The notes beneath the pieces were generated by a model, which was not told the DNA's origin, searched no databases, and saw nothing but the letters and a program-made list of their open reading frames with translations. DNA of 62,537 bases, the filler included. It is 16 parts of 16 records of this genome, joined end to end, with 100 filler letters (N's around TTAATTAATTAA, not from the genome) between each part and the next. Parts side by side here need not be neighbours in the genome. Positions count along the whole stretch, not along the records: positions 29,467 to 33,199 come from SRR9188676_1886; 15 more parts are not named here. The stretch is one strand, 5' to 3'. This document shows positions 2,477 through 54,187 of this stretch, one piece after another; within the stretch, counting starts at the first letter, position 1; every line of letters starts with the position of its first letter. A program made the translations under genes and the position numbers.

Positions 2477-2531
2477 CGGCCACATCCTCTTTTCCATTGT
2501 CGTTTTTCATTGATCCAACGAGGAGATCGCG

Positions 2532-4049: not shown

Positions 4050-4067
4050 CAGGCAAAGGGGGAGAGA

Positions 4068-7000: not shown

Positions 7001-7181
7001 GCCGGGGCAGGCGCATAGCGCGGACATCCGCCCGCACGCCCACGGCACGCTGCTGATCGATGCGGCGCAGGCAGGGGTGGGCGGCGACACCGGATGGAAT
7101 CTGGACGGACGCGCGCATATGAACTTCCGCATCCCGCTACGCTCTCTGACTTACAGCTTCACCATCGCTCCGGTGCGCTGA
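4068..7181 (+). CDS. Secreted beta-galactosidase, glycoside hydrolase family 2 (LacZ-like)
   Basis: Signal peptide; motifs GSYLEDQDFWR, RGVNRHEH, NAVRTSHYP, NHPSVIFWSLGNE, LILCEYAHAMGNS, GGFVWDWVDQ; small-chain domain WYGRGPQESYADRK...PQESGN. Confidence 0.95.
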   Translation: MMRTWMHSSATGALIAGLLLSPALAQTSPPEWEQPEVIRQGAEPMHATFDGFETRAAALSGDVARSRYHLSLDGAWQFHFSPNPESRPVDFYRPDFDTSAWGTIKVPGIWQAEGHGRPVFVGSGYPFPRDQPKIDHSLNEVGSYRRDVMIPAHFAGRRLLLTVGAAGAAYYLWVNGERVGYSEDSKLPAEFDISRYAKAGRNVVAIELYRFADGSYLEDQDFWRVNGIERSISLYAAPPTHISDLTVDAELEHDYRDGRLGLTVATGGAPGAMRVRATLMDGAKSLLVREATGSGAVRIEAGVPGVKTWTAETPNLYTLLVELLDEKGRLVEATSRRIGFRTVEIADGEVRVNGKRIMIRGVNRHEHDPKTFRILSEATMRKDIELMKAANINAVRTSHYPNDPRWYDLADEYGLYIMDEANIESHGYLSLSQERNNDPSALLGNDPKWRAAHLDRVQRMVQRDRNHPSVIFWSLGNETGIGDSFEAAAKWVKAQDPTRLVSFLGWSMSNWRHPVNAYVDIFAPMYDDVPKMIDYARDPAFKKPLILCEYAHAMGNSLGDLEGYWQAMRAHPKLQGGFVWDWVDQTMLLHDKDGRPYWGQGLDYDPDPKAPGVHGDDSPVGDGVIQSDRTPDPEYYELAKVQAPIAFLHEGDGYHIVNRHDHIDLSRFTLDWTVMEDGVAAAHGSLPMPSVAPGASAPLPLTLPASKNATAERMLVLRARAKAGAVPMLPAGHVVGWEQFALAAPALPAPPAGDVAPVEAGDMLRLTAGDIVLEIDRTTGLLRRYARAGAVLLSGGAPNFWRAPTDNDIGAGIPKSHAMWQYFSDHRRVETVERSGNAIIVRHDMGVGSVKVETRWTMSADGRVGVTMRFDPIRDTLPDPLRVGLAFDTPSALDKVQWYGRGPQESYADRKTGALIARWSGDVADQYHDYARPQESGNKSDVRWIALTGAGAGLRITGAQPLSVNALAFPYADLAMKPPGQAHSADIRPHAHGTLLIDAAQAGVGGDTGWNLDGRAHMNFRIPLRSLTYSFTIAPVR

Positions 7182-7199
7182 CCCTCATACGCCGCTCAT

Positions 7200-7238
7200 G
7201 AAAAGGCCCGCCTGCACGATGATGCAGGCGGGCCTTTT
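7200..7238. terminator. Bidirectional intrinsic terminator between convergent GH2 and TBDR genes
   Basis: AAAAGGCCCGCCTGCA-cgatga-TGCAGGCGGGCCTTTT perfect hairpin with A and T tails. A second GC hairpin GCCGGCCGGGG-cgaaa-CCCCGGCCGGC lies at about 7246-7272. Confidence 0.9.
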
Positions 7239-7280
7239 CATATGTGCCGGCCGGGGCGAAACCCCGGCCGGCGGACCTTT

Positions 7281-10193
7281 CTAGAAATTCACCGTCGCAC
7301 CGATGAAGATGTTGCGGCCCAGCGAGTCATAGACACCCGGATAGGTGTTGCCGTTGCCGAACGACGACAGGATGCCAGCGGCGATCGCCGGCGGATCCTT
7401 GTCGAACATGTTGTTCATGCCCGCCCGCAGCGTCAGTTGCTTGCCGATCGACTGGGTCAGCGAAAGATCGAAATAATTATAATCGTCGATTTTGCGGTTG
7501 ATCACGCTCGGCGTGCCGCTGAGCGCCGCATTATCCGACAGGCTCGACAGCTTGGTGCCGCCGATATGGCGCCAGGACAGCGAGAGGACGGTGTCGCTCG
7601 GCGCCATCCAGGTGAAGCGGGCGACATGGCGCCATTCTGGAGAGGGCTGACCGCAGGTATAGCCGAACAGGCCCTTGCAGTCGTAGCTGCCCAGGCCCGG
7701 CAGCGGTTGCGCCACCTGCTTGTCCAGCCAGGTACCGACCATGTTGACGTTGAACCGGCCCATCTTGCCGATGCCAAAAGTATAGTCAGCCGTAATGTCG
7801 ATGCCCGACGTCTTGAGATAGCCGGTGTTGAGCGTGGTCGAGACGATATAGCCATTCTGGCCGAAGATCGCGCCCGAACGCGGATCGCGGTTGAAGAGGC
7901 CGCAATAATAGGCATCGCCCGTTTCCGCGCACTGACTGATGATGAGCGACGCATCGAGCGCGCCGATATAGTCCTTCACCTTGATCTTGTAATAATCGAC
8001 CGACAGCGAGAAGTTGCGGAGCGATCGCGGCGTCAGGACGAAGCCTGCCGTGATGGTATCGGCGGTTTCGGGCCGCAAATTACGGTTGCCGCCACCCAGC
8101 GCCGAGCAGGTGTCCGCCGGGCATTCGATGATATTGCCATATTGGGCGGCGGTGACGCCGGTAAGGGCGCAGGTTTCCCGTGACGCGACCGGATTGGCCC
8201 CCGAACAGGGATCCTGCCCCGCGACATTACCGACCGATTGCGACGCGAAGAGTTCGCCGATATTGGGCGCGCGAATGGCATGATTGTAACTGGCGCGCAG
8301 GCGCAGGTCATCGACCGGTTGCCAGCTGAGTTCGCCCTTGTACGTCCAGACATTGAACTTCGACTGGAAGCCGGTCGATTTCTGTTCGTTGCTGTAGGAC
8401 GAATAGCGCAAGCCGCCATTGATCGTCAGCGAACGGATGAAGGGCATGTCCGAAATCAACGGAATTTCGATTTCGCCATAGCCTTCGGTCACGCTGATGA
8501 TGCCGTCCGCATTGGTGGCGCCGCCCTGCTGCGCGATCTCATCGGCGAAATAGTTCAGCGTCTCGCGCCGATGTTCGGCGCCCAGTGCAATGCCCACACC
8601 GCGGCTGGCCCAGGGGCTGGTAATGCCCATCTGGCCCAGGTCGCCGCTCAGCGTACCGGAAAAGACCTGTTGCGCATTGCGTGACGAGGTGTTGCTGGGG
8701 GTGAAGAGATAGGCGCCCTGCTCGGCGGTCACGCCGCCCGCTGCAAAGACATTGACGGGGACGCAGTTGGGATCGGTGCCATCGACCACCGAACGACAGG
8801 TCGGCGTACCGTTGACGGTCACGACATCCAGCGCGCGCTGCGCCTTGATCGCGTCGACATTGTTGAGATAGCGTTCCTTGAAGCGGACCAGCGAATAGAG
8901 ATAGTTCACGTCATAGCTGAAACCGCTGCCCAGATCGCCGCGCACGCCGGCGGTGTAGCGATAATCGGTATGTTTGAGGTCGTCGCGCCGCGGGGCGATC
9001 GACATGCGATAGCCCACGAGCGCGTCGGCGGTCTGGCCCGTGCCCGCCTTGCTGCCGCACAGAGTGTTCAATTGGCTCGCGCTGGCGAGCGGGTTGTTGC
9101 ACGTAATGGCGAAAGGCGAGCCAAGGAAGATGGCCGAAGGCGCGACCTGCGAGAAGGTATGGTCGCGCATGAACATGAAGCTGCCATAGACTTCGGCCGC
9201 CTTGCTCAGTTCGAACTTGGCGAAAGCACCCGCCGTAATGCGTTCTTCCGATCGCTGGAAATAATTGTCGGGCGCATAATTATAGGCGTAGCTGTTGTCA
9301 TAAGGCACGAAAGTCTGCGTGCCATTCTTGTTATTGGTCAGCGTCTGTCCCTGAAAGGCGCCTTCCAAAGGTACGAAGGTGCCATAGGGGGTATTGCTCG
9401 ATCCGCCGCAGAAGAGCGCGGTGCCGGCATCATCGGCCTGTTGCAGGGCGCAGGAAGACACGTCGCGGGTCGACTGGCGCACCGGGTTATAATGGCGATA
9501 GCCGGCATAGGCCGTGATGTTGCCCCGGCCGTCGGCGAAATTCTTGCCCGCCGATATGGTGATATCCTGCTTGCCGCCGTCCAGGACGGAGCCCTTGGCC
9601 TTCTGATATCCCTTGTCGTCGAGCAGGCTGCGCACGGCGCTATTATTATTGTCATGCTGGTAGAAACCGGTCTGGGCGTCGATACGGATGCCGTCCAGAT
9701 TATCCTTGAGCACGAAATTGACGACACCCGACAGCGCGTCCGAACCATAGACCGCCGATGCGCCGCCGCTCAAAATATCGACTCGCTCGACTAGGCTGCT
9801 GGGCACGAAATTGAGATCGATCGCCTGTTGCGGCAGCATGCGCTGGCCGTTGACCAGCACCAGTACGCGGTTGGAACCCAGGTTGCGCAGGTTGATATTG
9901 GATGTGCCGTCGGATCCGTTGGACACATTTTCGTTCGCGTCGGCGGTGAATTGGGGCAGGCGGTTCAGCACGCCTTCCACGGTCGTTGCGCCCTGATATC
10001 GGAATTCTTCGGAACTCACGACGGTCTGCGGGCTGTTGCTTTCCAGATCGGGGCGTTTGATGCGCGTCCCCGTCACGACGATGTCCGTCGCACCGGACGC
10101 TTCGCTTGCCTGAGGCGCCTGCGCCATTGCCGCCCCCGGCAGCAGCGCGGCGGCCGCCACCGCACAGCATAATTTCACACGGTATTGCCGCAT
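7281..10193 (-). CDS. TonB-dependent receptor (cysteine-rich alphaproteobacterial type)
   Basis: Probable start MRQYRVK at 10193 with GGGAG RBS. Signal peptide, TonB box DIVVTGTRI, plug INLRNLGSNRVLVLVNG...VERVDILSGGASAVYGSDALSGVVNF, C-terminal Phe. Confidence 0.95.
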   Translation of the reverse strand: MRQYRVKLCCAVAAAALLPGAAMAQAPQASEASGATDIVVTGTRIKRPDLESNSPQTVVSSEEFRYQGATTVEGVLNRLPQFTADANENVSNGSDGTSNINLRNLGSNRVLVLVNGQRMLPQQAIDLNFVPSSLVERVDILSGGASAVYGSDALSGVVNFVLKDNLDGIRIDAQTGFYQHDNNNSAVRSLLDDKGYQKAKGSVLDGGKQDITISAGKNFADGRGNITAYAGYRHYNPVRQSTRDVSSCALQQADDAGTALFCGGSSNTPYGTFVPLEGAFQGQTLTNNKNGTQTFVPYDNSYAYNYAPDNYFQRSEERITAGAFAKFELSKAAEVYGSFMFMRDHTFSQVAPSAIFLGSPFAITCNNPLASASQLNTLCGSKAGTGQTADALVGYRMSIAPRRDDLKHTDYRYTAGVRGDLGSGFSYDVNYLYSLVRFKERYLNNVDAIKAQRALDVVTVNGTPTCRSVVDGTDPNCVPVNVFAAGGVTAEQGAYLFTPSNTSSRNAQQVFSGTLSGDLGQMGITSPWASRGVGIALGAEHRRETLNYFADEIAQQGGATNADGIISVTEGYGEIEIPLISDMPFIRSLTINGGLRYSSYSNEQKSTGFQSKFNVWTYKGELSWQPVDDLRLRASYNHAIRAPNIGELFASQSVGNVAGQDPCSGANPVASRETCALTGVTAAQYGNIIECPADTCSALGGGNRNLRPETADTITAGFVLTPRSLRNFSLSVDYYKIKVKDYIGALDASLIISQCAETGDAYYCGLFNRDPRSGAIFGQNGYIVSTTLNTGYLKTSGIDITADYTFGIGKMGRFNVNMVGTWLDKQVAQPLPGLGSYDCKGLFGYTCGQPSPEWRHVARFTWMAPSDTVLSLSWRHIGGTKLSSLSDNAALSGTPSVINRKIDDYNYFDLSLTQSIGKQLTLRAGMNNMFDKDPPAIAAGILSSFGNGNTYPGVYDSLGRNIFIGATVNF

Positions 10194-10299
10194 TGATTGT
10201 CTCCCTGACTTTTTTGCAGGCGGGATGCTGCGACGGAAATATTTAAAAGTCAAATACCGTATACTAAATATCTTATGCATATTCGACCGATTGAGACAT

Positions 10300-10334
10300 A
10301 AAAAAGGGCAGCCGCCCAAAGGCGCTGCCCTTTC
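10300..10334 (-). terminator. Intrinsic terminator downstream of the dipeptide epimerase
   Basis: AAAGGGCAGC...GCTGCCCTTT hairpin with a T run on the minus strand. Confidence 0.8.
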
Positions 10335-10351
10335 ACGCCAAATCTGACGGA

Positions 10352-10802
10352 TCAGCCGCCCCAGACGGCCCTATCGCAATGGAGCAGCCCGCCATTATAG
10401 GCGACGGCAGGCACATGGTCCCGCGCCAGGAACAGCGGCGCGTCGAGATCGACCAGATCACAGACCTGTCCCAGCAGGAAAGCCGGTGCCATCGCCAGAC
10501 TGCTGCCCACCATGCAGCCGACCATCACGCCAAGGCCGGCCTGCCGCGCGGCGTCGGCGATCATCAGCCCTTCAGTCAGGCCGCCGCATTTATCGAGCTT
10601 GATGTTGAAGACGTCGAACCGACCGACCAGTCCCGCAACATCGTCCAGCGTCAGGGCGCTTTCGTCGGCCGCCAAAGGGATGGGCGAGTCCAGCCCCTCC
10701 AGCGCCGCCTCCTGACCGCGTGGCAAGGGCTGTTCGATCAGGGACACTTTCGCGTCCACCATCGCCGCCAATAGACTGTCCAACTCGTTGATCGCGAAAC
10801 CC
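10352..10802 (-). CDS. Dipeptide epimerase (L-Ala-D/L-Glu epimerase / DgcA-like, enolase superfamily), 5' truncated
   Basis: IEQPLP, PLAADES, NIKLDKCGGLTEG, MVGCM and the DLD motif diagnostic of dipeptide epimerases. Confidence 0.9.
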
Positions 10803-11236
10803 NNNNNNNNNNNNNNNNNNNNNNNNNNNNNNNNNNNNNNNNNNNNTTAATTAATTAANNNNNNNNNNNNNNNNNNNNNNNNNNNNNNNNNNNNNNNNNN
10901 NNTTTAGCCTCTTCCCCACCCTCTAGGTATTGACGTGAAGCTGCCTAGAGGAGTGAATCTTCGATTTACCGCTTGAAAATAATAGTTGTTACACATGGAG
11001 TGACGTGGGAATGCCAGAATCAGTGGGACATGACGCCCGAGGGTTGGCCCAAGGGGATTTGTCCTTTGACAGAGAATTATGTCACGTTATTATCTGCACA
11101 TATGAGTTTTTATCTTATCTGGCCGAATCATAGACGCCAAGGTTGCACAGAATACATTTTACATTATCTCTAAATGGGAAATTGGAGAATCTGCAGATAC
11201 CTTTTGGAGATTATGAATATGACAATGAAATATTAC

Positions 11237-28363: not shown

Positions 28364-29964
28364 GACGAATAATGATAATATAAGTGGAAATCCCAGAAGA
28401 CGTCGACTCGAGAGACGCTCGATCGTTGCAGGGGGACACAATGGGAGTAATGAAACCTTCGACTTTTTTGGGGGTAGAACGTGTTTTTTTCACAAAACTT
28501 TTGCACGTCCGGAACGGGCCGAGCGTGCGTCAGGAGATAGACATCTAAACGAAAGGTATCCAAAGTTCCAAAAACAGACAAAAACATGAGACAGCAGTGC
28601 CCGCAAGGAGGCCTGCTGTCAACTCCGATCTCGGGTCTGTCTTTCCTGGTATCCCGAAAATCGAAGGAGTCCTACTGCGAGGGACGTTTCTAACCTCGTT
28701 CATCAAACAAACTCGAAGGCTAGACAAATCGAACTTGCAGTGATCGCTCGAGATTCAGGAGCGAGAAGTACGTAATCGTTTCTTATTCTCTTTAATTACC
28801 TTGTTGATGGGGGTGTAGTTATCAAGCTCACGATCATTCTCATATTCCTGGTGATGATGATTGTTCGATCCAAACACAAGCAAGAAGCTGCAGCCCGTTC
28901 ACAAGGGGATTGGAATCTGAATATTGTAACACCGAAGGAGGTCCGCATCATATGGACTAACTGAAATCGATGATTCAATGAGTCTTAAGATTCACCTCCC
29001 ACAATTTCCCCTGTCCACAGTTGAACCCATCTGATCAGGGATTCTTTTCACTGTGCTAGGATGTGGTTGTCAAGCTCCAGATGCTAGGCACCTTGGAGTT
29101 AGAATCAGGCAACGGACACAGCTCCAGTGACTCGCGGAGACCCCATTATTTCAACATTACAGAATGATTCAGCATCTTCAAGTGCAACTCTAGTGAATGA
29201 AAGAGAGAATTGTGATGTGTGTGTTGTTTTTTTTAAATATTTCGACTGCCTTTGGTTAGAATGCTTCATGTGATGAGTACCGGTGTGGTTTTCTCCTTAC
29301 CTCAGGTACCTATTCGCTCATGTTCGTTCCTTTACTTTTTTTCCGAACAGAAACGCTTTCTATGTCNNNNNNNNNNNNNNNNNNNNNNNNNNNNNNNNNN
29401 NNNNNNNNNNTTAATTAATTAANNNNNNNNNNNNNNNNNNNNNNNNNNNNNNNNNNNNNNNNNNNNCCAGAATCATTACATAATCTATTGCTAAACATCG
29501 AGGTATGTCTGAATGAATGGATTCTAGGCCGCTCAATGGTCTGTGATGTTTCTTGTATACGTCAGCTTTCCCTGAGGATGGGAATCCGCTCGAGATATTC
29601 CAAAATAGTCGAGTCAGTATCGAGCATGTGTACGAATGCAACTCCGCTCTGCCAGATGCCTGCCCCGCACGGCTCACACTCGCATCCGTCTCAGAGGCAT
29701 AAGCATATGCATAAGCATAACGAAACAAGTATAGCCGGGACTTTCCCGAATTTTAAACCCTCCCCCCCCACCCCCACCCCCGCGACACACATGGAAAGAG
29801 AAAAGGGGGACAGAAAAAGATCTCGATCAAAATTCAATGAGTGAATGCAAGGCTTGCAAGGCTTCGAGTTTGTCTGATTTCGCGAAACACGTTGCCACTT
29901 CAAGAGACATGAACGTGAAGAAAGAAGGTTTTCTTTTTCTTGCCAATTTTCTTCCAAACTTTCT

Positions 29965-31333
29965 TCACGCACCTCTCTTCGCGAGCACAACATCATCAGG
30001 AGAAGGTTCGTTGAAATCAAAGGGTTGCACTCGCTGCTTACTGCCCCCAAGAGAAGCGGGCTGCCAGGAGATAGTTAAATTGGAAACAAGCGAGCTGATA
30101 TCATGTGAATCCTGCAGCTCTGCGCACAGACCTTGTGCTAGAACTGAGGGCTGTGGTTCTGATGAAACTGCTGGTGATTTTACTGATGATGAGGCTACTG
30201 ATTGGGATGATGATTGCGTTGTCGATGTGGCTGCTGCCTGTCTCACAGTTTCTTTCGGCGAGGACGCAAAAATTGTTGGTTTCGTGGATGGGATCGATCT
30301 CGGTGCCTCATTAAGACCAATACCAGTGGTTTGTGCGGCCGAATTTGAGCTCTGAAGAGCAGAGGACAGTGCCGACCCCGATCGAGCAGTAGAAGATGTA
30401 GTAATATTGCTCTTCTGGCCTGGATCATGTGAGGAAAAAAAAAAGAAAAAAGGAAAAAAAAACGGGACTGACGCTCGTAAACCCCTATAAGGATGAAATG
30501 TATGAGTAAGTTACCTCCGGAGGCGAATGGATTCACGACTGCAGGCTTGGATGATGTCGTGGCAGCAGGCCGGAATGGATTATTGGCGGGAGCGGTGGCT
30601 TTATTTGCACTAGCAAAGGGATTCTGCTTCTGCTGAGGCTGCTTTGGTGGCTACAGCGAAATCGTATGAGTACAAGGGTCGATAGTAGATCGTGAGCGAG
30701 ATGATCCGCTCTATTTAGTGAGAACGTACAGGAGGTGGCTTGACATCTTCATCATCACCAAGGAGAGAATTTCGTGCCTTGATTACATCAAGATTATTTG
30801 CCTCTAAGGCATGGCCCAAGTCGGCATCTGAAAATGCATCACCGAGCAAATCCTATCGAGGATGGTTGAGATTGGAGCGGAGAAGATGGCAACAAGTTCG
30901 ATCAGAGAAGCAATACCTGAAGTTTTGCGAGGGCTTCGTTGAAAGCGGAATCATCCTTTAGTTTCTCAGCTGATCCTTCCCAATACTCATCAAAATATCT
31001 GGCAGAGATGTGAGAAATGATTCAAGCGAGTTGATGTGATTTCGTACTCTCCGTCATCTTCCTTTCCACTTCTATTGTACATGTACTACACAAAGAAAAT
31101 AAGTAATATTAGTGATAATTACTCATACTTTCAGGAAAATTCACTCACCGTTGCCTCCGTTCCGGGTGAAACACCATAGAAACCCTCTGATGGGGAAGCG
31201 GCAACATCGTAATCTAAAAAATGGTGAAGATATGAGTACAGAAATCGTCTACAGAATAAAAAAAATGTGGAAATGCAAGACTACCATCATCATCGTCGAA
31301 CGAAAGCTTCCTTAAATGGCGATGTCGAGACAT
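29965..31333 (-). CDS. HBS1L: HBS1-like / SKI7-like protein, N-terminal region (GTPase exons not in contig)
   Basis: Spliced: MSRHRHLRKLSFDDDD/YDV...FYGVSPGTEAT/YMYNRS (HBS1 N-terminal signature), helical HBS1_N-like segment DLLGDAFSDADLGHALEANNLDVIKARNSLL, then an exon with QPSVLAQGLC and PFDFNEPSPDDVV. Confidence 0.8.
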
Positions 31334-31649
31334 TCTTGATTGTGACAAACTGACGTGACCCAAGTTTTAGCAACCTTATGGCTTCTTGAGACCCCGACAT
31401 GGATTTCATTTCTGCCTGACTTTTCCCCACATAACATCAAATCGCATCGCACATACTCCAAGCTATGTACATATCATGCTTAAGCAAAGAGAGAAAGAAG
31501 ACGAGTGAGGCAAAGCCCAGAATTCTGTGCCACAAAGGAAGCGACTCTAACGATTCACATCAATCAGATCTCTTGTTCAGGGGGGTAGATCTGCTGTCTC
31601 TCAGATCCTTGATTGGCATCTTTTGGGCTTTTAGAGACTTCCTTTTGCG

Positions 31650-32680
31650 ATGAGTGAAGACGATTCACCCGAGGCACTTGCCAAAGAGGCTCGCTCTCGA
31701 TTCGAACGTGGCGATACAAATGGCTCTTTGAAAGTTTTGTCTCAGATTGCTAAGAAGAAGCCTGATGATCGAAAAGTAAAACATAATATCCATGTTTCGA
31801 CATATTACATGCAAGGCTGCCGCTATGCCGAACAGTTCATCAAAAGTTTGATTTCATTGCGTCGAAGCTCTGCTTCCGAAGAAGGTCTCGCAGACCGTGA
31901 GGGCGAGAATAAGCAAGATGATGAGATCGAAGATGACACCAATTCCGCTCTCGCAAAATACAATGAAGCTGTCGTATTATATCAGGTAGATAATTAAGCG
32001 CTCACAATAATCTCTTTCCATCAAATTCTAATATCCTTCCAACAGACCAAACAGTACTCTTCTGCCTACAAGACATTATGTGAGGTTTTCAAGCAAATTG
32101 AACCTCTCGAAGAGGGTCTTTCTCTCAGAATCTGGTTTGTTTTATTTTATTTTTTGCCCGTCTTCCTCTCTCCTTTCAAGAACGGTTATTTATATCATCT
32201 CCATTTCCTTCAGCTTCACACTCGTTGATTGCGCATTATATGTTGGTGATACTGAACGAGCCACCTTGGTTCTAGCATACCTCGAAAAGGAATTCTCTGC
32301 CCTTTTGTCTAAGGATGCAGTGGCCAATCCCACTCCTGGTGCTCTTGCCAATGCATTCAGTAACATTGAGATCAATGGCGGTGAGTGATGAGCATTTCTC
32401 TCGCCTTTTCTTCTTGGCATATGCCCTCATATTTTCCCATTTTGTAGAGCGATTTGGAAAACTCCCATGTTCAGATCTCATGATGTCCCCCTCTGAATTC
32501 AAGGCTGCTCTTCACTACTATAAAGCTGTATGCATTTTTTTCTTTTCGGAATCAATTCTATCATTCCATTTCTTTTCTTTCGTGAATCTAGACCTCTAAT
32601 CATTTATAATGTATACAGCGCCTTTATCTTCAGAGCAAGAATTTGAAGTTGAGCAAACGCGAAATCAAGGTTGCATTGAG
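31650..32680 (+). CDS. CNOT10: CCR4-NOT complex subunit 10, 5' exons
   Basis: LAKEARSRFERG...KVKHNI...YNEAVVLYQ/TKQYSSA...FKQIEPLEEGLSLRI/...LHYYKA/RLYLQSKNLKLSKREIK, matching CNOT10 N-terminal TPR motifs. Confidence 0.85.
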
Positions 32681-35246
32681 GTGAGTTGCATGCTTTGATC
32701 CAGCCCCAGTTAATGCTGTGAATACATCATCAACATCGAGCCATCCTATCAATATCTGCTTGTTCTTTTCTGATCTTTGCGGTCAATCCGCATTGATCCT
32801 GCCATCATTGATCCGTACATGGCAGGATCAGAAGATGTCAATTCAATTCGAAGACAAGCCATCTTCTTCTCATTCATTTATATTTCACATGCATCTGTCA
32901 TGTATGAGGTTCTATCCCTCCGCCATAAATTCAGCATCTAACGAACCAATTACTCACTTTCGCTCTTGTGTACTGTTTTCCTTTGTATCCTAACTCTGTA
33001 GTGTCGGAAGCGGTGTCAACCCTGGCAGCTCGCTGCATGCTGCATGCATTTTCTTGAAAGCAAAACTCGAGTACTTGAGACAAAATTACAGGAAAAGGTA
33101 TGCTGGGTGAAAACACGTCAAATATAGGTATCACTCGATAGATAGCAAACTTACCCTCCCCTCTTCCTCTCCTGAAGAGAGAGAGAGAGAGAGAGAGAGN
33201 NNNNNNNNNNNNNNNNNNNNNNNNNNNNNNNNNNNNNNNNNNNTTAATTAATTAANNNNNNNNNNNNNNNNNNNNNNNNNNNNNNNNNNNNNNNNNNNNT
33301 CATGGGTGGGAGAGACACACACACTCGATTCAACCATCTTTTTCACAGAAATCTTGAATTCATAATTCCGTCGAGGACGATGTGTGGTTTGAAGGGCGCG
33401 GGGTATTGTCGCGGCAGGTGTGCCCCATAATGTATTAAAATCTCTCTTGCCTGGAATTGTCGTCTCTCGAAACCATCTCTCTGAGCTACGTGCGTCACAA
33501 TGAGCGAAAATACCGTTATGAATCAAAAATGACTTTGAACTTTCGTTCAATCTAGCTAGACTGGAGACTGACGAGGGAATAGCTGTTCTCTCGCTTTCTC
33601 TCGCTTTCTTTCTCGCTTTCTCTCTCGCTCTCTCGTTTTCACTCGCGTTCGTCTTCTCTCCATCGTTATCTTCAGGGCATGTCCAAGTGCCCATCGCGAA
33701 GAGAGTCTCCCAGGAAGAAGAGACGGCTACGAAGGACACAGCGGCAACACGAAAGGCACCCTGAACATTTAGAGGCAACACGAAAGGCACCCTGATGCTC
33801 TAGCGGAGAGGAATCTGACCGAAAGACGTTTCAGGAAGAGCATGCTGACCATCCATTTTTAACACAGGTAACTCACTTCGCGCGTGGCTATACCGCCAAA
33901 AACTTATTTCTCGTATCCAGTGTGGCTAGCGCCAGAAACACAAGAAATACAAGATAACATTCCAGTAACTACGCGAGAATTTGGTCAATATGTTCGCTAT
34001 TCATGTTCCTGCTCTCTAGATTGTCTCTATTTCACAGCAAACAGGCCAGGCTTTTTCATAATTCCTCCAGACTCTTGAATCTGAGGGATCTATGAATACG
34101 AACCTCACCCTTCCATGATGTGAGAAGAGGAGAATGGTTATTCAGAATCTCTTCGTTCCTGATTTTTACTGTTTTTCTTTTATTATTATTATTTGTAGCT
34201 TCAAGGGACTTCCATTCACTTCTCCAGGTAACTTGGAAAGATCTAAGGACGAGTCTTTTTCCCAATTCAAGTTTCTTAGATTTGTGTCATTGCATCCTCG
34301 CTCTGTTCCCTTATTCTTTGCATCCTATTTGTACGCTTCACAGGCTTATTTTGTGCTTCATCTTTGAAAGTTCCAGCCACGCGTCTTCCCTTTACCATCC
34401 ACACTTTTCCGACTCTTTGCCACCCGACCACTGGACCCTCGCCTAACTATGATCATGGATAATCTCCACCGCCCGTGAGCCTGCGGCCAACTTTTAGGTT
34501 GGAGAGATGAAGCTATCAAAAGAAGCTAGAGAGACACTTCTCTGAAAACATCGTAAAATCAGTTTCTACGTCCACATTCAGAGGCGCAAACAGAATAGGG
34601 AGGAGGTTTCTCATCTCAAAAGCTCGCCGAGCACAGCAGCAAGATTCTCAAAAGCTCGCCGAGTCAATTGCGAAGAATGATTCTGGCGGAGCCTGAAAAT
34701 AAAGACGTGTCTTAGAAAGCAGTTTCCATCAGGAAAAGAGAGGAGATGCGTACTTCACTGGAGTAAATTTGTGTTCATAGAGATTTTCTTTTCCGATCCC
34801 TCAAAGGCTATCTAGACTTGTATCATAGTATTCAAAATCCTATGAAGTGGGATTAAGTCGGATAGAGAGGAAAAAGAAGTAATGAGGTATATACAGCTTG
34901 TTGGTACATAGAGGATATAGTGAGAAAAATGAAAGCAGGAAGGCGAGGTTGTGTCTCGTAGGCAGAGCTGATTCTGACCTTCATCTTGTCGTGCATGATA
35001 ATTATTCATTCGTCTTTCTCCAATTCTGCTCCAATAGCCGGTTGATGTGAAATCTCCGGATGAGCTGGTCTTGCTCAGCTCTCAGAATCCGAACGGGTGA
35101 TCTTATAGACCTTAGAGAGAGAAACGGAAAAAGATAAAGAGAGAGTTGTGGATATGAACATGGATAAAAAGAAAAGAAGGCTATTAGGAATCAAGAAATA
35201 CCTGGACACAGAGGGCATTTATTCCCATATATATGATCTTTGTCAC

Positions 35247-46640: not shown

Positions 46641-48048
46641 ACGCAGCGACCACATCGGGCTGATCAAAGCAGAAGTCATTACTCTTGACAAGATATGGAC
46701 CAATCTATCACAAACCTCCATATTCTGAGGTAAACCAGCGTGACCGAGAAGAGAATCCCTGCTCCCGGCGAGGTGCGCCACAAGACCCGTGCCGACTTTT
46801 CGACTCCCTTTGAGATACAAGATCAACAATCATCCCTCTGGAAAACTATGGTACCAGCCAATCTGCGAGTCATCACTTCTCTTGTCTCCCCCATTTCTTC
46901 AAGTATTTGATTTCACGGTCCTCAAACGATCAATCAAACAAGCAAAAAAAACCCGCATGTATCGTTCTTTCTCATTTTGAGGATTAGCCTTCCGAGATAT
47001 TCGGGTTACAGCAGACACTATCGACCCTTACCACGATGATTCACAACGTTTTCTGTTTCTGTTTTGTTTTGTTTTCCTTTCCGAGAAGGTAATGATGGAA
47101 TTTTTGCTCTCTTTCTCCTATTCTAACTCTTTAGTTTCCCATGTTTGTATACTTATCCCTTATCACATTCTCGATTCTGTGAATATCCCAGATGAAAAGC
47201 TCAGCCGTTGCCACTGGAACGACCCTAAAATGACAATAGCCCAAACCAGTTCACCCAACCAGCAATCAGCCGCAGTGCCAACAACCTACCTTGACGTCTG
47301 GAGCAGACGTCATTCATTGTCTGATCACACTCGAGCGCCTGTACTGAACCCTGAAAATGGTAAATTTTTTTGGAGCGACAGTAGCGAATATGTCCCCCGT
47401 CCGAGTTTTGACTTTTCAAAGCGCTCTCCAAAAATCTCACTAAATTTTATTATATCGCTCAAAAAGAGTTCATTCAACCAGGTTCTTAGTGGTCAAAGCT
47501 TCGGTGTCCTGGTGCGCCGAAAATCAAATGATCGACAGTAACCATTGCACCAGGGTCAAGTCTAGAGGCAACATGTTTCAAATCTGAAACTGTGAGAAAG
47601 CTCCAGCTCAACAAAAGACCCGCCCTTTCCAGGGGACCAAATTCCTTCCTAGTTTTTCTGCAGTTCGTGCCACATGTTCCCACCGTTTCATCCCGTCTCT
47701 CGCCTATTTAGTAGGAGTCCTCTGAATCAATGGATAGATACATTAATGATCTTTTAAAGGGTGCATTCGTGGTCAAAAATTGTGCATTCCGTTGGACATA
47801 AAGTTGACTCGAAAGGATAAGGTGAACGTCCGAAAACTTCGCGAGTTCTCGAAAGGCTGGGACTATCACTCTACCCATTANNNNNNNNNNNNNNNNNNNN
47901 NNNNNNNNNNNNNNNNNNNNNNNNTTAATTAATTAANNNNNNNNNNNNNNNNNNNNNNNNNNNNNNNNNNNNNNNNNNNNTGTGTCATCGACGAGATATT
48001 TTATGTCTTCAGAGTGTTGTTTTATCTGATGCAAGAGATAAAATATCT

Positions 48049-49074
48049 CTAAGCAAAATGTTCACGGGCTACTTGCCAAATGATTTTGGTTTCAATTGGC
48101 ATGATGCCTTTTTGTTGTTGCTGAATAGAAATATCTGCAATGATTTTCCAATGACGAGCCAAATCTCTGTAGGCATTCCAAACGGTGTTTTTAGGGTCAT
48201 AGATATGTCCCGGTTCAGAACTTACTCCGTTCAATTCCATGATTCGGATATTTTTTCCTTCATATAAATCTTCGATTGACTTTACTTTCATATCGAATCT
48301 TCCATAATGAAAACCTTCAATCGGTAGCGCAATTTTATCAAAGACTTGATTCAGTTTTTCATTGATTAAGAAATTGTTATCTAAGAATTTAGTGCCTCTA
48401 CAATGATTTCCTATCGGTTCTAATAATCGTTTTTCTCCTGCTGGAATTACTTCATGAATCTTTTCTCCTAAACGTAAACGCATCGTTTCAAGCTGAAATC
48501 TTGCACGAGTACTGGATTGCATTAATGCTTCAATACTAGATTTTCCATCGCCTGTTACCGACAAAAACTCTTTTCTAGTAATTGAACTTACTTGTCCTTT
48601 TGATTGATTTGGATAACGATAATAGAGTACGCCCAATTCAATACCAAAAGTGATAAATTCTTGAATGATAAAATCTTCTTGAAGGTTTTGTAAGTATTTT
48701 TCAAGCGCAAATTGGTCGATAATCTTTTCAACTTGCGAGCCTCTTTCACCCACATTGGGTTTACAAATAATAGGGAATTCAAGCTTGTTTTCTTCTAGCT
48801 TTTCAAGAATTATAGCCAAAGAAGTTTCTTTTTTTACAAAGAAATAAGTCGGTAAAAAGTCGGAAGAAATCTGTTTTAGAATATCAATTTTACTTTCACC
48901 AAAGAAACCGCCATAATCAATACAAGGGTCGGCATTGGTGAAAAAAGTAAGCGAGCGAGTACGAGCCGCTTGATATAACCAATAGGGGAGAAGCGGAATG
49001 TAAAACATCCACCACGTCCAATATTCAAAATGCGTAAGTTTGATAAGCCAGAGCGGTAATTGTAATTTGTTCAT
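48049..49074 (-). CDS. Bacteroidota ATP-grasp fold protein (D-Ala-D-Ala ligase-like family)
   Basis: HFEYWT, FFTNADP, ESKIDIL, FPIICKPNVGERG, IIQEFI, ELGVLYYR, GDGKSSI, GNHCRG, FHYGRFD, IMELNGVSSEPGHIYDP. Confidence 0.85.
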   Translation of the reverse strand: MNKLQLPLWLIKLTHFEYWTWWMFYIPLLPYWLYQAARTRSLTFFTNADPCIDYGGFFGESKIDILKQISSDFLPTYFFVKKETSLAIILEKLEENKLEFPIICKPNVGERGSQVEKIIDQFALEKYLQNLQEDFIIQEFITFGIELGVLYYRYPNQSKGQVSSITRKEFLSVTGDGKSSIEALMQSSTRARFQLETMRLRLGEKIHEVIPAGEKRLLEPIGNHCRGTKFLDNNFLINEKLNQVFDKIALPIEGFHYGRFDMKVKSIEDLYEGKNIRIMELNGVSSEPGHIYDPKNTVWNAYRDLARHWKIIADISIQQQQKGIMPIETKIIWQVAREHFA

Positions 49075-49368
49075 GTTGCAAACTTACGGATAATGAGGAA
49101 ATGATGGATGTCGGGAATCGGACAGTTTTATTGATTTGGGATTTATGATGTTGGATTTTAGATGTCGGAAATCGGATTTCAGCTTTCAGTCTTCTGTTAA
49201 TCAATAATTACTAACTACTAATTCGCCGATTTTTCCTGAAACGGCAAAGCAAGAGTTGTCGTTACGAAGTGCCATTTTTAAAGCAGATTCCTAATCACTA
49301 ATTCACAATTCGCTAACTCACAATTAAGAAAAATCACTAATTCACAACTGACTCATTCACTCAATAAA

Positions 49369-50727
49369 TCACTGCCCCAAATGTTGAATGGCACTTCTTC
49401 TAGGAATGGTTAAAATCTGTTTTTGTCGCCCGTCTATATAATGGACTTTTCCGTTGATAAAAAGTCCTTGTTCTTCAAGCATGATTCTTACTTCTTTATT
49501 CCCCCATTCTGGAATTTTCACCTTCGCATTCAGTTCAATGGCATAAGCAGTATTTTCATTCAAAGGATATTCGCCATTGCCCGGCACGCCACCTTGCATA
49601 TCCCACATACCAATCGCTGGTCCAGCAGCATGACCGTGATAACCCACTGGATGTGAATAGATTTGTGCTACCAAACCATCTTGCTCTGCTTTACGAAGCG
49701 ATAGTGCTAAAATTTGATTGCCCGTCATGCCCACTTTAAAGAACCCCGTCATAATATCTTGAACTTTGTTGCCAGCTGCTAAGGCTTTTCGTAAATATTC
49801 TGGTAATTCCTTTTCTTCGGGACGAAGTACATAGGCTAATTCTTGCACATCTGTATTTAAGCGAAGATAAGTAATGCCAAAATCGCAATGAAGTAAATCA
49901 CCGGAGAGAATCACATCTTCCGCTGGGCGACGGTCATAAGGCCAGTTCGTTTTATCTGGATCTGGACGTTGCACATCAACCGTTGGATGAAACCAAGTAT
50001 CTAACTTTAATTCAGCTACTCTTTCACGTAAATACCAAACTACATCTTCGGTAGTGGTTACACCCGGAACGACTACTTTATCAGAAAAAGCTTCTGCAAT
50101 AATTTGATGCGTAATACGGTCTAAGGTTTCGTAAAGGGCTATTTCTCTTGGCGTTCTACTTTCCAACCAGCCAACAGCTAGTTTTTCGCTAGAAACAATT
50201 TTCTCTTTACTTTTCTGCGATAAGTTTTCTATCAAAGCTTCGTGTTCAGAATGCGAAAGTCCATCAGAATGTGCATATTGTTCAGAAACATCAATCGCAA
50301 TTTTCTTAGGATTTCTTTCTTCAATTAAGGCAGAAAGACGTTTCCATTGGTTGGGTTCTTCTTCGGGTTTCCAAGCAGATTTGAAAATCGTACCTACATT
50401 ATAGCGAGCTACTGCCAAACATTCCAAGCCTTCTTTTTCGCCTTTATCGTAAATCAATAGAATCGTTCTTCGGCGAGCATTCAGCCAAGTAGAAGGAAGC
50501 ATCGTTTTGATGATTGGGTCTTCGTTGTATTCACGGGCAATAATTAGCCACATATCAATGCCTTGCTTTCGCATCAAAGAAGGCAAAAGAGATTTAAAGC
50601 GTTCTTCCAATAATTGGTCTTGCAGAACAGCTCTGTCTTTTAACGCTAAAATTTTAGGAATATCCTGAGCAAGAAGAGAATGAATAGCAAAAAGTAAGGC
50701 AATAAAGGTAAAAGCGTATTTGTTCAT
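49369..50727 (-). CDS. Secreted M24-family (Xaa-Pro) aminopeptidase
   Basis: Probable start MNKYAFTF with a signal peptide. Motifs IDMWLIIAREYNEDP, LLHCDFGI..L.TDVQ, YSHPVGYHGHAAGP, AIELN, LEEQ. Confidence 0.88.
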   Translation of the reverse strand: MNKYAFTFIALLFAIHSLLAQDIPKILALKDRAVLQDQLLEERFKSLLPSLMRKQGIDMWLIIAREYNEDPIIKTMLPSTWLNARRRTILLIYDKGEKEGLECLAVARYNVGTIFKSAWKPEEEPNQWKRLSALIEERNPKKIAIDVSEQYAHSDGLSHSEHEALIENLSQKSKEKIVSSEKLAVGWLESRTPREIALYETLDRITHQIIAEAFSDKVVVPGVTTTEDVVWYLRERVAELKLDTWFHPTVDVQRPDPDKTNWPYDRRPAEDVILSGDLLHCDFGITYLRLNTDVQELAYVLRPEEKELPEYLRKALAAGNKVQDIMTGFFKVGMTGNQILALSLRKAEQDGLVAQIYSHPVGYHGHAAGPAIGMWDMQGGVPGNGEYPLNENTAYAIELNAKVKIPEWGNKEVRIMLEEQGLFINGKVHYIDGRQKQILTIPRRSAIQHLGQ

Positions 50728-50867
50728 GATGAAGGATGTTAATGAAATTAGATTCTTATAAAAATAAGAGAATTTCATTAGAGAAGACTTATCATGAGCT
50801 GATTTTTTCTTCCATTCTCTGCAATAATTTTCGAAGTTATCAGAATCTTCAAACCGTTTTATGGTAT

Positions 50868-50899
50868 AAAAAAAGAAGCTCGTGGAGACACGAGCTTCT
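50868..50899 (-). terminator. Intrinsic terminator of map
   Basis: AGAAGCTCGTG-gaga-CACGAGCTTCT perfect hairpin followed by a T run on the minus strand. Confidence 0.88.
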
Positions 50900-50918
50900 C
50901 AAGAAATAATGGTTTTTC

Positions 50919-51683
50919 TTAATTCCAAATCTCATTCATCTCTGTCAATACAATTGGTTTTCCATCGGTAACAACAATTGTATGTTCGTGTTGAGCCATA
51001 AACCCGCCCCTGTTTCCAACCATTGTCCAGCCATCTTGCAATGTTTCAGCATAAGTAGAAGTAGTTGAAATAAATGTTTCAATAGCTACCACAGAATTTT
51101 TCTTAAACCTTGTGGTATTATATTTATCTCTGAAATTTGCTATTTCACTTGGTTCTTCATGAAGACTTCTTCCTACTCCATGACCAGTCAGATTTTTGAT
51201 GACCTTATAACCTCTTTTTTTAGCTTCAGTTTCAATCAAAAGTCCAATGTCAGAAATGCGAACGCCGCCCTTAATATTATAAATAGCTTTATGTAAAATT
51301 TGTTTTGACGCTTCAACCAATTGTTGATGTTTGTTTACATCATTTCCAATGACAAATGAAGCACCATTGTCCGACCAAAAACCACCAAGTTCTGCTGAAA
51401 CATCAATATTAATTAAATCTCCTTCTTTTAATATTCGTTTGCTTGAAGGAATGCCGTGACAAAATTCATTATTAGTACTGATACAAGTCCAACCAGGAAA
51501 ACCATAAGTAAGATACGGAGCAGATTTAGCTCCCAAGTCATTCAGGATTTGTCCACCATAATTATCCAATTCCTTTGTTGTCATACCGGGCTGGGCAAAC
51601 TTTCTCATTTCTTTCAACGTGTAAGCAACTGCTTCACTTGCTTTTTGCATTCCAACTAATTCTGATTCTTTTGTTATCGACAT
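50919..51683 (-). CDS. map: Type I methionine aminopeptidase
   Basis: GFPGWTCISTNNEFCHGIP, GDLINIDVS, WSDNG, GHGVGRSLHEEP, VAIETFI, AQHEHTIVVT. Confidence 0.96.
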   Translation of the reverse strand: MSITKESELVGMQKASEAVAYTLKEMRKFAQPGMTTKELDNYGGQILNDLGAKSAPYLTYGFPGWTCISTNNEFCHGIPSSKRILKEGDLINIDVSAELGGFWSDNGASFVIGNDVNKHQQLVEASKQILHKAIYNIKGGVRISDIGLLIETEAKKRGYKVIKNLTGHGVGRSLHEEPSEIANFRDKYNTTRFKKNSVVAIETFISTTSTYAETLQDGWTMVGNRGGFMAQHEHTIVVTDGKPIVLTEMNEIWN

Positions 51684-51742
51684 ATTTTCTTTTTCTAAAG
51701 TATTTGTTGTGTTTAGCTTGACTGCTGAATTTTAAATATAGA

Positions 51743-51750
51743 CAAATTTA
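51743..51750 (-). promoter_or_regulatory. Bacteroidota -7 promoter element for map
   Basis: TAAATTTG on the minus strand matches TAnnTTTG, 60 bp upstream of the ATG. Confidence 0.6.
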
Positions 51751-52020
51751 CGTTTTTTCTTATAGGTAAAAAATGGATATAAATAAACCAATTGTACTTT
51801 ACTTAACAATGGAAACAATAGAGGAAGTTCATATCGTTTTAATGGGCATTGGTAAAACAACAAAAATACCTATTACATGTAAAATTGATTGCCAAACACC
51901 GTCCTCTTGAAAATGATGCTGTAGGCAATTCTATTTTTAGGAAGAAATATTTAGCTTAAAGTATGGCTTTTTTTATTGAAAAGTTTAACTTACTTATCAT
52001 TTATATTTTTAATTTTGATT

Positions 52021-52797
52021 ATGTCTAACGAGCATTCACAACTTTACGTCAGAGCAAAAAAAATATGGGAGACAGTGGTAAAAGACGAACCCGGTTATCC
52101 CCTCGAATTAAAATTACAATTAGAGTTACACAAACAACTTCTTAATCTCTTTCAGCCGGGTACTTATTACTACTATGTGTTTAACATATTTGAAGCAGAC
52201 TTTGATTTTGTGAGCCCTGAGGTTGCGAATGTACTTGGCTATTTACCTGAAGAAGTAAATATTCATAAATTCTTGGATATAATTCATCCAGAAGACAAGC
52301 CTTACTTTTTACAATTTGAACAGCGAATTACAGAGTTTTTCAAGACATTGCCGTTTGAGAAAATATCAAAATATAAAATGCAGTACGATTTTAGGATGCG
52401 TACAAAGGACAATCGTTATGTACGGCTACTACACCAAGCAATACAAATAGATTTTGACGAAACGAATTATTATAGAACACTAGATCTAGATACTGATATC
52501 ACACATCTAAAGAAAGACGGGGAACCTTCTTTTTCAATAATAGGTCTTGACGGAGAACCATCTTACTATAATATTACAGAAACTAATACGCTTATTTTAT
52601 CTCATGACCTTTTTACAAGAAGAGAACGAGTGATTTTAAAAATGATTGTAGAGAATAAAACTAGTAAAGAAATAGCCAGCATACTTTTTATAAGTCTGCA
52701 TACCGTAAACACCCATCGTAAGAACATATTGAGAAAAGCCAAAGTCTCAACGCCAATAGAACTTGTGCGTAAAGCGATTCAGGAAGGTTGGGTGTAA
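52021..52797 (+). CDS. PAS-domain LuxR-family transcriptional regulator
   Basis: FVSPEVANVLGY...IIHPEDK...YDFRM (PAS_3) and FTRRERVILKMIVENKTSKEIASILFISLHTVNTHRKNILRK (LuxR HTH). ATG at 52021 is the likelier start. Confidence 0.92.
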   Translation: MSNEHSQLYVRAKKIWETVVKDEPGYPLELKLQLELHKQLLNLFQPGTYYYYVFNIFEADFDFVSPEVANVLGYLPEEVNIHKFLDIIHPEDKPYFLQFEQRITEFFKTLPFEKISKYKMQYDFRMRTKDNRYVRLLHQAIQIDFDETNYYRTLDLDTDITHLKKDGEPSFSIIGLDGEPSYYNITETNTLILSHDLFTRRERVILKMIVENKTSKEIASILFISLHTVNTHRKNILRKAKVSTPIELVRKAIQEGWV

Positions 52798-52937
52798 ATC
52801 GCTAATAGTGATAAAATTATTTATGAAAAACTGTACCCAACGATACATTAAGGCTACTATCGCTTTTAGTTTATATCATCGGTTTGATAAACGGGTCTTT
52901 AGTTTTTAGCTATTTAGAAGGCCTTGCTCATTTTTAA

Positions 52938-52986
52938 AATACCTACCCATAGGTATTGTCTTACCTACCTTGATTTTATAAGTTTG
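52938..52986 (+). promoter_or_regulatory. Palindromic operator overlapping a Bacteroidota promoter for the LamG gene
   Basis: AATACCTA-ccca-TAGGTATT (52938-52957); TTG at 52956-52958; TAAGTTTG at 52979-52986 with 20-bp spacing. Confidence 0.7.
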
Positions 52987-53218
52987 TCACGTTGATAGTA
53001 GCTCTAAGGATTAAAATTCATGATTAAACACTCACAATACAATGATATGAGGTGTGATTCTGTTCGTGAAGGCGTCTCGTTACTAATGTAGAATGATAAA
53101 AACTACAAGTTTTATGATATTGTTTAAACAAGTGGAGACAGGTAACTTCTATACAATTTTTAGCAATTAACACAATTAAGTGTATTCATAATGATCAACT
53201 TACAAACAATAATAATCT

Positions 53219-54019
53219 ATGAGAAAATCAGTAATCGTTTCGACTGTAATGCTATGTTTTCTTCTTGTCGTAGGATGTAAACTAAAAGAAAATGATGATA
53301 TTACACCTATCCCTACTTATACAATTCCTACCAATGGTTTAATTGCATACTTTCCCTTCAATGGGAATGCCAATGATGAGAGTGGATATAAAAACAATGG
53401 GGAGGTAATTCAAGGAGTGGTTTTGACTGCTGATAGAAAATTAAATAAAGACAAAGCCTATAGTTTTGGAGGTTTTGACAACGTTGGTTACATCAAAGTC
53501 AATAATTCAGAAAATATGCATCTAACCAAGACACTTTCTATCTCTATTTGGTATAAACTAAACTCATACTATGGAATGGATAGCTATGCAAAAGCAAGTC
53601 AAAATGGCTATCACGTTTTGATTGGAAAAGAAGGTGACAGAGATGGCTTCTATATGGCAGTTGATAATAATCAGGCTACTAACAAACAGAATGTAGCCTT
53701 TTACAACAAAATTGCCTTTAGTAGTAATTTCTCAATACTTGGTAATCCAACAGGTACAAAATCAGAAAATACCAATAAATGGATTCATACCGTGACAGTA
53801 ATTGATGAAGTAAATGCCAAATTATACATTAATGGTACACTTATTCAGTCAACACCAGTATCTCCTGACTTTTCAAGTGCAAATACCAAAAATTTGTATA
53901 TCGGTACCATGATGGCCTTAGGCACAAATTGGTATCCATTTAATGGCTCTATTGATGACATAAGAATTTATAACCGTAGCCTATCTGATACTGAAATAGT
54001 AGCACTTTCGAAGGAATAG
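53219..54019 (+). CDS. LamG-like jellyroll (concanavalin A-like) lipoprotein
   Basis: Lipobox LVVGC; GLIAYFPFNGNANDESG..NNG, LTADR, SISIWYK, WIHTV, LYINGTL, FNGSIDDIRIYNRSLSDTEI. Confidence 0.9.
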   Translation: MRKSVIVSTVMLCFLLVVGCKLKENDDITPIPTYTIPTNGLIAYFPFNGNANDESGYKNNGEVIQGVVLTADRKLNKDKAYSFGGFDNVGYIKVNNSENMHLTKTLSISIWYKLNSYYGMDSYAKASQNGYHVLIGKEGDRDGFYMAVDNNQATNKQNVAFYNKIAFSSNFSILGNPTGTKSENTNKWIHTVTVIDEVNAKLYINGTLIQSTPVSPDFSSANTKNLYIGTMMALGTNWYPFNGSIDDIRIYNRSLSDTEIVALSKE

Positions 54020-54187
54020 GTATTACACTTATATATTTTTGTCAGGTATGATGTATCTAGTAGGTAGCTCATACCTTTTGGCTATTTTATTATTTACATT
54101 TAACCCCCTCACTTGAAAATACAAGCATTATATACACAAAAAATATATTCGATAGTAATACTTACTTGAATTTTAATATATACAGGG

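Follow-up and report, generated by a model that had tools for sequence, protein, structure and literature searches.

A Ski7-type exon and the conserved intron position that follows it in a predicted HBS1/SKI7 gene

The stretch of DNA analysed here (the window, 62,537 nt) carries, on the contig SRR9188676_1886 (positions 29467-33199, 3733 bases), the upstream exons of an HBS1/SKI7-type gene. Its seventh exon encodes the predicted exosome-docking module of Ski7, in which a SKI7-like motif is followed by a Patch 4-like motif in the order and spacing of the family, and the exon ends at a phase-1 splice donor located where plant-like and fungus-like loci have a conserved intron. An earlier sequence-only reading of the window had proposed an HBS1/SKI7-type locus with a Ski7-type exon, and this proposal is borne out.

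The locus itself is an expected member of the known HBS1/SKI7 family, and single loci that yield both a ribosome-rescue GTPase and an exosome adaptor have already been documented in accounts of fungi, plants and animals (PMC3597508; PMC6143672; PMC5389692). What is added is a lineage whose exon has no relative that could be detected in a set of 1.84 billion representative proteins, and a locus in which a two-motif exon of animal-like form is combined with the plant/fungus-type intron behind Patch 4. In the account of Brunkard and Baker, it is an open question when animal SKI7 lost its GTPase and how the gene structure evolved (PMC6143672). The intron position and phase common to plant-like loci, fungus-like loci and the present locus point to an old gene structure. 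This shared intron after Patch 4 seems the observation most worth carrying forward, and it may be a more useful result than the locus itself.

The Ski7-type exon and the intron position after Patch 4

Exon 7 is 447 nt long and in phase 1 at both ends, with an acceptor ...cacatgatccag^GCCAGA and a donor AGAGAG^gtgcgtgaag (carets mark exon boundaries). Within its 148 full codons, PQPSVLAQGLC occupies residues 88-98, and PFDFNEPSPDDVV begins at residue 132. The extent and phase of the exon, the place of both peptides, and a GTGCGT donor with an in-frame TGA two codons on (AKRGA, then stop) are all as the sequence-only reading had described them. The SKI7-like motif takes the form A+PShFAahL in metazoans and A+SLFaaa[P/L] in plants. 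Patch 4 corresponds to the yeast motif S3 and to human PFDFxxxSPDDIVKxNQ and, in a yeast structure cited by Brunkard and Baker (2018), is the Csl4 site (PMC6143672). The human KxNQ extension after Patch 4 is absent in exon 7, which has LAKR instead. The RPSAFASTLC-type motif had been read earlier as a binder of the SKI complex, which is the wrong partner: as reported by Kalisiak et al. (2017), the RxxxFxxxL motif binds the exosome and is modelled on RRP43, and the PFDF motif plays a minor part in exosome binding (PMC5389692). RIPR, the other plant exosome-SKI linker, is described as having neither a SKI7-like motif nor Patch 4 (PMC6711988), and the motif pair is therefore specific to SKI7.

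Comparator loci were collected by back-translating the Patch 4 consensus given by Brunkard and Baker (2018; PMC6143672) into a degenerate DNA pattern. This pattern retrieved 97 loci on metagenome contigs, 94 of them SKI7-like, and found 4 matches in the whole prokaryote genome collection. By reading frame, the 97 loci divide into 38 plant-like (PFKF...), 10 fungus-like, 46 animal-like and 3 others, labels that derive from the sequence pattern and visible neighbouring exons and are not taxonomic assignments. The last group, outside the SKI7-like set, consists of L053 and L063, apparent chance matches, and the ambiguous L079. Within the window the pattern matches once, and none of 100 shuffles matches it.

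Because the comparators were chosen through Patch 4 alone, the sequence upstream of it serves as an independent test. When the 68-residue stretches that stop two residues short of the PF in Patch 4 are aligned, 52 distinct open reading frames (ORFs) share one conserved block, x-x-[PV]-[ST]-x-[FL]-[AG]-x-x-[LIV]-[CSLV], which is the SKI7-like motif of the literature. A weighted position-specific scoring matrix was built from 35 distinct comparator instances, leaving out L016, a misaligned, plant transcript-like locus without the cassette. Its best window in exon 7 is PQPSVLAQGLC at 15.6 bits, near the bottom of the 13.7-28.0 range spanned by comparator instances, with the qualification that the columns were picked after the motif had already been seen. 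This score was reached by 21 of 20,000 composition-preserving shuffles, 11 of them at a distance compatible with Patch 4. The spacing of 44 residues between the two motifs is usual for the family, comparing with 29-70 in the 52 distinct comparators and 40-42 in the fungus-like loci. Leu at the Phe place of the motif is found in several comparators too, and the basic residue is likewise missing in fungus-like loci. When the spliced N-terminal protein is searched by tblastn, about 70 residues spanning both motifs align at 38-43% identity to L057, L002 and L021 (68-70 residues) and at about 34% to several animal-like loci. The upstream SKI7-like motif is present but weak.

Searches of general databases returned no relative. 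A HMMER scan of the 1.84 billion representative proteins gave three matches, all to internally repetitive, unrelated proteins. Word-indexed protein searches produced 3790 candidates for the whole of exon 7 (against longer proteins), 54 for its 63-residue motif half and 23 for exon 5, none of which scored. The ESM Atlas yielded no usable match and Pfam no match for exon 7; the PDB, searched by sequence, had no match to exon 5 or to the motif half and, for exon 7, gave two cyanovirin-N dimer chains alone at an E of about 1, which were taken as noise. A protein-guided search of metagenome contigs with the motif half gave 599 pattern matches, none of them confirmed by tblastn. The absence of a relative from the large protein library is at least compatible with an under-sampled protist lineage. 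Judged by their listings, none of the papers returned by a full-text literature search on protist Ski7/HBS1 is about alternative splicing, a subject that Marshall et al. (2018, PNAS) may cover, as they may the conserved intron.

The donor of exon 7 matches AG^GTRNGT exactly, and its junction, AGA G^GT GCG, lies at codon 18 after PF. Thirty of the 38 plant-like loci have a phase-1 K-G^GT junction (AAA, then GGT) at codon 26 after PF. The other eight comprise two that are too short and six intron-less loci that read across this point (...RK^EVQIK, ...PKG^SGDA), which confirms the junction. All 10 fungus-like loci carry the K-G^GT junction in phase 1 at codons 19-22 after PF; in L021, the intron can be followed from the conserved donor, past a CTGAC branch-site-like element, in frame into ...KNLDVLAEYNK...FVVIG^HVDAGKSTLMG. 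Among animal-like loci, by contrast, [K/R]-G^GT after Patch 4 occurs in one of 46 (L020), and the remaining 45 stay in frame across a conserved [KN]Q[KR]xAF tail until a stop is reached. Since the donor at 29972 has the position and phase of the conserved intron and splits a Gly codon after a basic residue, it is probably real and inherited, and a real donor here implies that the mRNA extends into linker and GTPase exons, as it does in plants and fungi. This donor, suggested by the sequence-only reading, is thus very likely real, and the gene probably continues beyond it. In many vertebrate-like terminal exons (among them L003, L009, L019, L025, L027, L045, L078 and L097), the sequence ...AF-G is likewise encoded by TTT G^GT AAA, phase 1, with the split at codon 22 after PF. 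This G^GT is near the place of the fungal K-G^GT, and it could be a remnant of the ancestral donor or coincidental.

The contig ends 506 nt past exon 7. The candidate next exon of the sequence-only reading has a fair phase-1 acceptor (first exon base 29571) and a frame open for 35 codons to the contig end, but the encoded sequence bears no likeness to any comparator linker. It is included in a longer frame of 95 codons (29467-29752, minus strand), which is open from 29752 to the contig end and likewise has no comparator match. No Rfam family is found at or near its gathering score in the 506 nt, and an exact 50-mer from the contig end has no match in the prokaryote genome collection. Past exon 7, at 29697-29720 and 29765-29781, lie a (GCATAA)n-type microrepeat and a G/C-run, which may explain the nearby assembly break.

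Gene model and genomic surroundings

The gene model, cut off by the contig end, comprises seven exons on the minus strand, read in a single frame from the ATG at 31333 without disruption and separated by six GT..AG introns of 49-95 nt (Table 1). The sequence-only reading had treated the frame symmetry of exon 7 and the stop close to its donor as signals. A length divisible by three is, however, found in two of six internal exons (those of 123 and 447 nt), and three of the six other introns have an in-frame stop no more than 4-5 codons past the donor, so that both features are at chance level.

Table 1. Features of the HBS1/SKI7-type locus and its flanks (positions in the window)
Feature	Position	Strand	Description
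Exon 1	31285..31333	-	ATG 31333-31331 (first ATG of the ORF); encodes MSRHRHLRKLSFDDDD; exit phase 1; donor ATGATG^gtagtc
Exon 2	31149..31213	-	65 nt; frame continuity; 71-nt GT..AG intron
Exon 3	31048..31085	-	38 nt; required to bypass an in-frame TGA; 49-nt intron after
Exon 4	30917..30998	-	82 nt; first part of HBS1_N-like helical region
Exon 5	30730..30852	-	123 nt; phase 0/0; second part, HBS1_N-like / UBA-like region
Exon 6	30515..30650	-	136 nt; low-complexity linker with three NPF tripeptides; exit phase 1
Exon 7 (Ski7-type)	29973..30419	-	447 nt; phase 1 in and out; Ser/Thr/Ala-rich stretch, then both exosome motifs
SKI7-like motif PQPSVLAQGLC	30124..30156	-	RxxxFxxxL / A+PShFAahL position; Q and L replace R and F
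Patch 4-like motif PFDFNEPSPDDVV	29986..30024	-	fits PF[DKR]Fx3SPDD[ILV]V; family-canonical
Splice donor GTGCGT	29967..29972	-	after AGAG, phase 1; splits Gly codon after Arg
In-frame TGA	29965..29967	-	reached only without donor use; tail ...LAKRGA, then stop
Stretch downstream to contig end	29467..29964	-	no recognisable coding sequence; G-run, short tandem repeats
Artificial contig joiner	29367..29466	.	N44 + TTAATTAATTAA + N44; unrelated contig beyond

The evidence on the N-terminus, the weakest part of the assignment, leans toward an HBS1-type protein. Spliced residues 71-109 align with the one L020 exon that matches HBS1_N in Pfam (E 1.1e-8, 35.8 bits), at 31% identity and 59% positives over 39 residues, although with an E of 3e-4 in one comparison this match is weak; so is the pairwise match of exon 5 alone to the same L020 exon (E 0.005). 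In Pfam, exon 5 matches UBA_RAD5A alone, with an E of 0.013 that is below the cut-off. The start of the protein, MSRHRHLRK...DDDD, is one that we take to resemble the start of animal HBS1L. Exon 6 encodes a 45-residue linker in which NPF occurs three times (NPFAS, NPFRP, NPFAS). NPF is the classical ligand of EH domains; plain low complexity is also possible.

On the plus strand, a divergent neighbour gene at 31635-33199 begins some 300 nt away from the ATG of HBS1/SKI7. In Pfam, its first exon, MSEDDSPEALAKEARSRFERGD..., has TPR matches that are all sub-threshold, and we take the gene to be reminiscent of CNOT10. The window as a whole consists of 16 pieces and 15 identical joiners (N44-TTAATTAATTAA-N44; among others at 2105-2204, 10803-10902 and 58089-58188), and adjacent pieces are not necessarily linked in the genome. 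The pieces at 2205-10802 and 47981-58088 are plainly bacterial in look, with long uninterrupted ORFs. One bacterial-looking piece is GC-rich and contains alpha-/beta-galactosidase-like (glycosidase) ORFs and a TonB-type receptor, while another, of low GC content, contains a PriA-like helicase and peptidases. These pieces are probably contamination of a eukaryotic assembly. A kinesin exon on another contig of the window gives a placement no finer than Eukaryota.

Products of the locus and competing explanations

The explanation that we moderately favour is that the locus is the 5′ portion of a single-copy-type HBS1/SKI7 gene from an intron-rich eukaryote, that its GTPase exons lie off the contig, and that Hbs1 is made by motif exclusion. 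Exons 1-5 would form the shared N-terminal module; in the human protein, the N-terminal part common with canonical HBS1L is reported to bind the SKI complex (PMC5389692). Exon 7 would provide exosome docking, through a SKI7-like motif at the Rrp43 site, by analogy with the human model, and then a Patch 4-like motif at the Csl4 site, by analogy with yeast. The AGAG^GTGCGT donor would open the phase-1 intron conserved behind Patch 4 in plants and fungi, and the mRNA would run on into linker and GTPase exons past the contig end, so that the Ski7 produced would retain its GTPase in the plant/fungus style. Hbs1 would most likely come from the same gene with the SKI7-like motif left out, and skipping the whole of exon 7 would be the simplest route, one that keeps the frame. 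In published accounts, single HBS1/SKI7 loci are alternatively spliced as a rule, and the SKI7-like motif is the part omitted (PMC3597508; PMC6143672; PMC7491326). Both plant isoform types appear among the fetched loci, where intron-less, plant transcript-like contigs include L016, with a zinc-finger region joined straight to Patch 4 and the SKI7-like motif absent, as opposed to L011, L026, L055, L066 and L090. Alternative splicing of the present HBS1/SKI7 locus is plausible on this analogy, and the chance that its SKI7-like motif is alternatively excluded is close to even.

Several observations weigh against this explanation or are neutral toward it. The acceptor (polypyrimidine content 0.8 over 20 nt) and the donor of exon 7 are both strong, and constitutive inclusion fits them equally; the symmetry of the exon by itself is weak evidence for skipping. 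Separate HBS1 and SKI7 genes are described as having arisen repeatedly and independently by duplication (PMC3597508; PMC6143672). In fungi, alternative 3′ splice sites that lie a short way upstream of motif S3 have been described by Marshall et al. (2013; PMC3597508), and no such internal site is evident here, where two weak in-frame AGs lie between the motifs (polypyrimidine content 0.35-0.5). At the N-terminus, Pfam searches with exons 4 and 5 singly and with the exon-1 ORF gave no HBS1_N match. Exon 7 has no homologue in any protein resource queried; a phmmer search with its upstream 128 residues found nothing among the comparator ORFs at E <=10, and the 52-sequence hidden Markov model of the whole region scores it at 4.9 bits, which is not significant (at least 12 of 2000 shuffles score higher). 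As to the GTPase, none of the patterns G[HN]xDxGKS[TS], GKST[LTI] and DxPGHxx[FY] (G1 and G3) occurs in six frames of the whole window, the contig ending 506 nt after exon 7, and those 506 nt have no tblastn match to the comparator loci at E <0.1. The next intron would be at least 401 nt long (with the acceptor at 29571, otherwise longer), as opposed to 49-95 nt for the other six. No G1 lies within 557 nt after Patch 4, whereas the distance from Patch 4 to G1 is 339-612 nt in fungus-like loci, 835-1859 nt in plant-like genomic loci and 983 nt in L020; the spacing therefore fits plant-like loci or L020 and not fungus-like loci.

Some of these points would also suit a dedicated SKI7 paralogue, with exon 7 constitutive, the GTPase following and Hbs1 supplied by a second locus, an arrangement reported in S. 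cerevisiae, Schizosaccharomyces, rice and Solanaceae. Repeated independent duplication into HBS1 and SKI7, the strong polypyrimidine acceptor and consensus-like donor of exon 7, and the lack of any sequence feature that demands skipping (symmetric exons being two in six) all agree with such a gene. Yeast SKI7 genes, however, are reported to have lost the N-terminal exons (PMC3597508), while an apparently HBS1-type N-terminus is kept here, and Brunkard and Baker report alternative splicing of SKI7-encoding loci in nearly every eukaryote examined (PMC6143672). A dedicated paralogue is possible but on the unlikely side. Of lower standing still is an animal-style short adaptor, in which exon 7 would be the last exon, with GTGCGT unused or only sometimes used, and translation would stop at the TGA at 29965-29967; the product would be a Ski7 of about 315 residues without a GTPase, and any Hbs1 exons would lie further downstream, joined to exon 6 when exon 7 is skipped. 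A single large exon holds both motifs behind a long low-complexity insert, which is also the case in animal-like loci; the stop comes 19-20 codons after PF, similar to the 22-41 in most animal-like ORFs, and the downstream 506 nt look non-coding, contain simple repeats and are far longer than the other introns of the gene. The read-through tail, LAKRGA and stop, is nevertheless without the KQKxAF extension, since no [KN]Q[KR]xAF follows SPDD[IV]V as it does in 45 of the 46 animal-like loci, and in its place stands a plant/fungus-type junction with an exact AG^GTRNGT donor at the conserved intron position. A stop near the donor is common in this gene, and neither AATAAA nor ATTAAA occurs in the downstream 506 nt, a weak argument given that the poly(A) signals of the organism may differ. 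The animal-like product proposed by the sequence-only reading is weakened by these points: it is unlikely that a stable truncated adaptor is made at all, with or without other forms, and more doubtful that it takes the form just described.

The same reading had envisaged three products from the one locus, namely Hbs1 when exon 7 is skipped, a Ski7-GTPase when it is included and a truncated adaptor when the donor is read through. All three are frame-compatible, and a comparable arrangement is seen in the invertebrate-like L020 (445-4038), where an HBS1_N exon exiting in phase 1 is followed by a two-motif exon of about 395 codons that has G^GT donors in phase 1, at codons 19 and 25 after PF. The two-motif exon of L020 can be joined through a phase-1 donor to linker and GTPase exons within 1 kb, or else read on to a stop 17 codons later, and by frame L020 could make Hbs1, Ski7-GTPase and short Ski7. 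For the present locus, though, three separate events would be needed, a read-through product is the ordinary outcome of any retained intron, and no conserved tail or poly(A) signal backs a dedicated short form, which makes the triple output highly improbable. Hardly to be credited is an origin as a chance ORF or as a fragment of a decayed pseudogene. The lack of a homologue in protein databases and the setting, a short unplaced contig with bacterial contigs in the same window, would suit such an origin, but seven exons stay in frame with canonical splice sites and no disruptions, two family-specific motifs stand in the right order and spacing, and the intron position is conserved.

Beyond the single-copy HBS1/SKI7 gene favoured above, a more speculative proposal is that the locus keeps an intermediate, possibly ancestral architecture, with an animal-style two-motif exon in phase 1 on both sides and a plant/fungus-style donor. 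This is quite doubtful. If it were true, the GTPase-less Ski7 of animals would have arisen by disuse of an ancient donor, read-through to a nearby stop and polyadenylation, and the organism, like L020, would still be able to make GTPase-bearing and truncated adaptors besides Hbs1.

Likeness to known systems

Compared with the plant HBS1/SKI7 gene (Arabidopsis At5g10630 type, as presented in PMC6143672), the locus has identical spacing within Patch 4 (PFxFxxPSPDDhV), a Patch 4-bearing exon that ends in phase 1 at [K/R]-G^GT, and a SKI7-like motif that could be removed without a break in frame. Its S-V-L-A-x-x-L variant of this motif is shared with monocot-like loci, whose contigs include SGVSVLARSLF. 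It differs from plants in carrying both motifs on one exon of 447 nt, whereas plants have a SKI7-like cassette exon with Patch 4 on the next exon, and in its MSRHR.../HBS1_N-like N-terminus, where plants have an acidic N-terminus and a RanBP2 zinc finger. The GTPase part of the plant gene has no counterpart visible on this contig.

Fungal SKI7/HBS1-like loci (L002, L021, L057, L015, L067 and L047) provide the best matches, with a common ...SLGG...PFDFxxPSPDDVV context and a phase-1 intron after Patch 4 (codon 18 here, 19-22 there). Unlike in fungi, no intron separates the two motifs. With vertebrate HBS1L isoform 3 and animal SKI7, as described in PMC5389692, the locus shares an apparently HBS1-type N-terminus, one large exon in which a long low-complexity insert precedes both motifs, the Pro seen in the A+PShF form and the L-C that ends the SKI7-like motif, and an in-frame stop soon past Patch 4 when the donor is ignored. 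It departs from animals in lacking the KxNQKxAF tail, in having Q and L for the R and F of RxxxFxxxL, and in placing a plant/fungus-type consensus donor where 45 of 46 animal-like loci have coding sequence. L020, whose isoforms are likewise predicted from sequence, differs in showing its linker and GTPase exons within 1 kb and in having a KQKGAF tail. In both loci, however, an N-terminal exon exits in phase 1, the two-motif exon carries a phase-1 G^GT, and the frame permits this exon to be either included or skipped.

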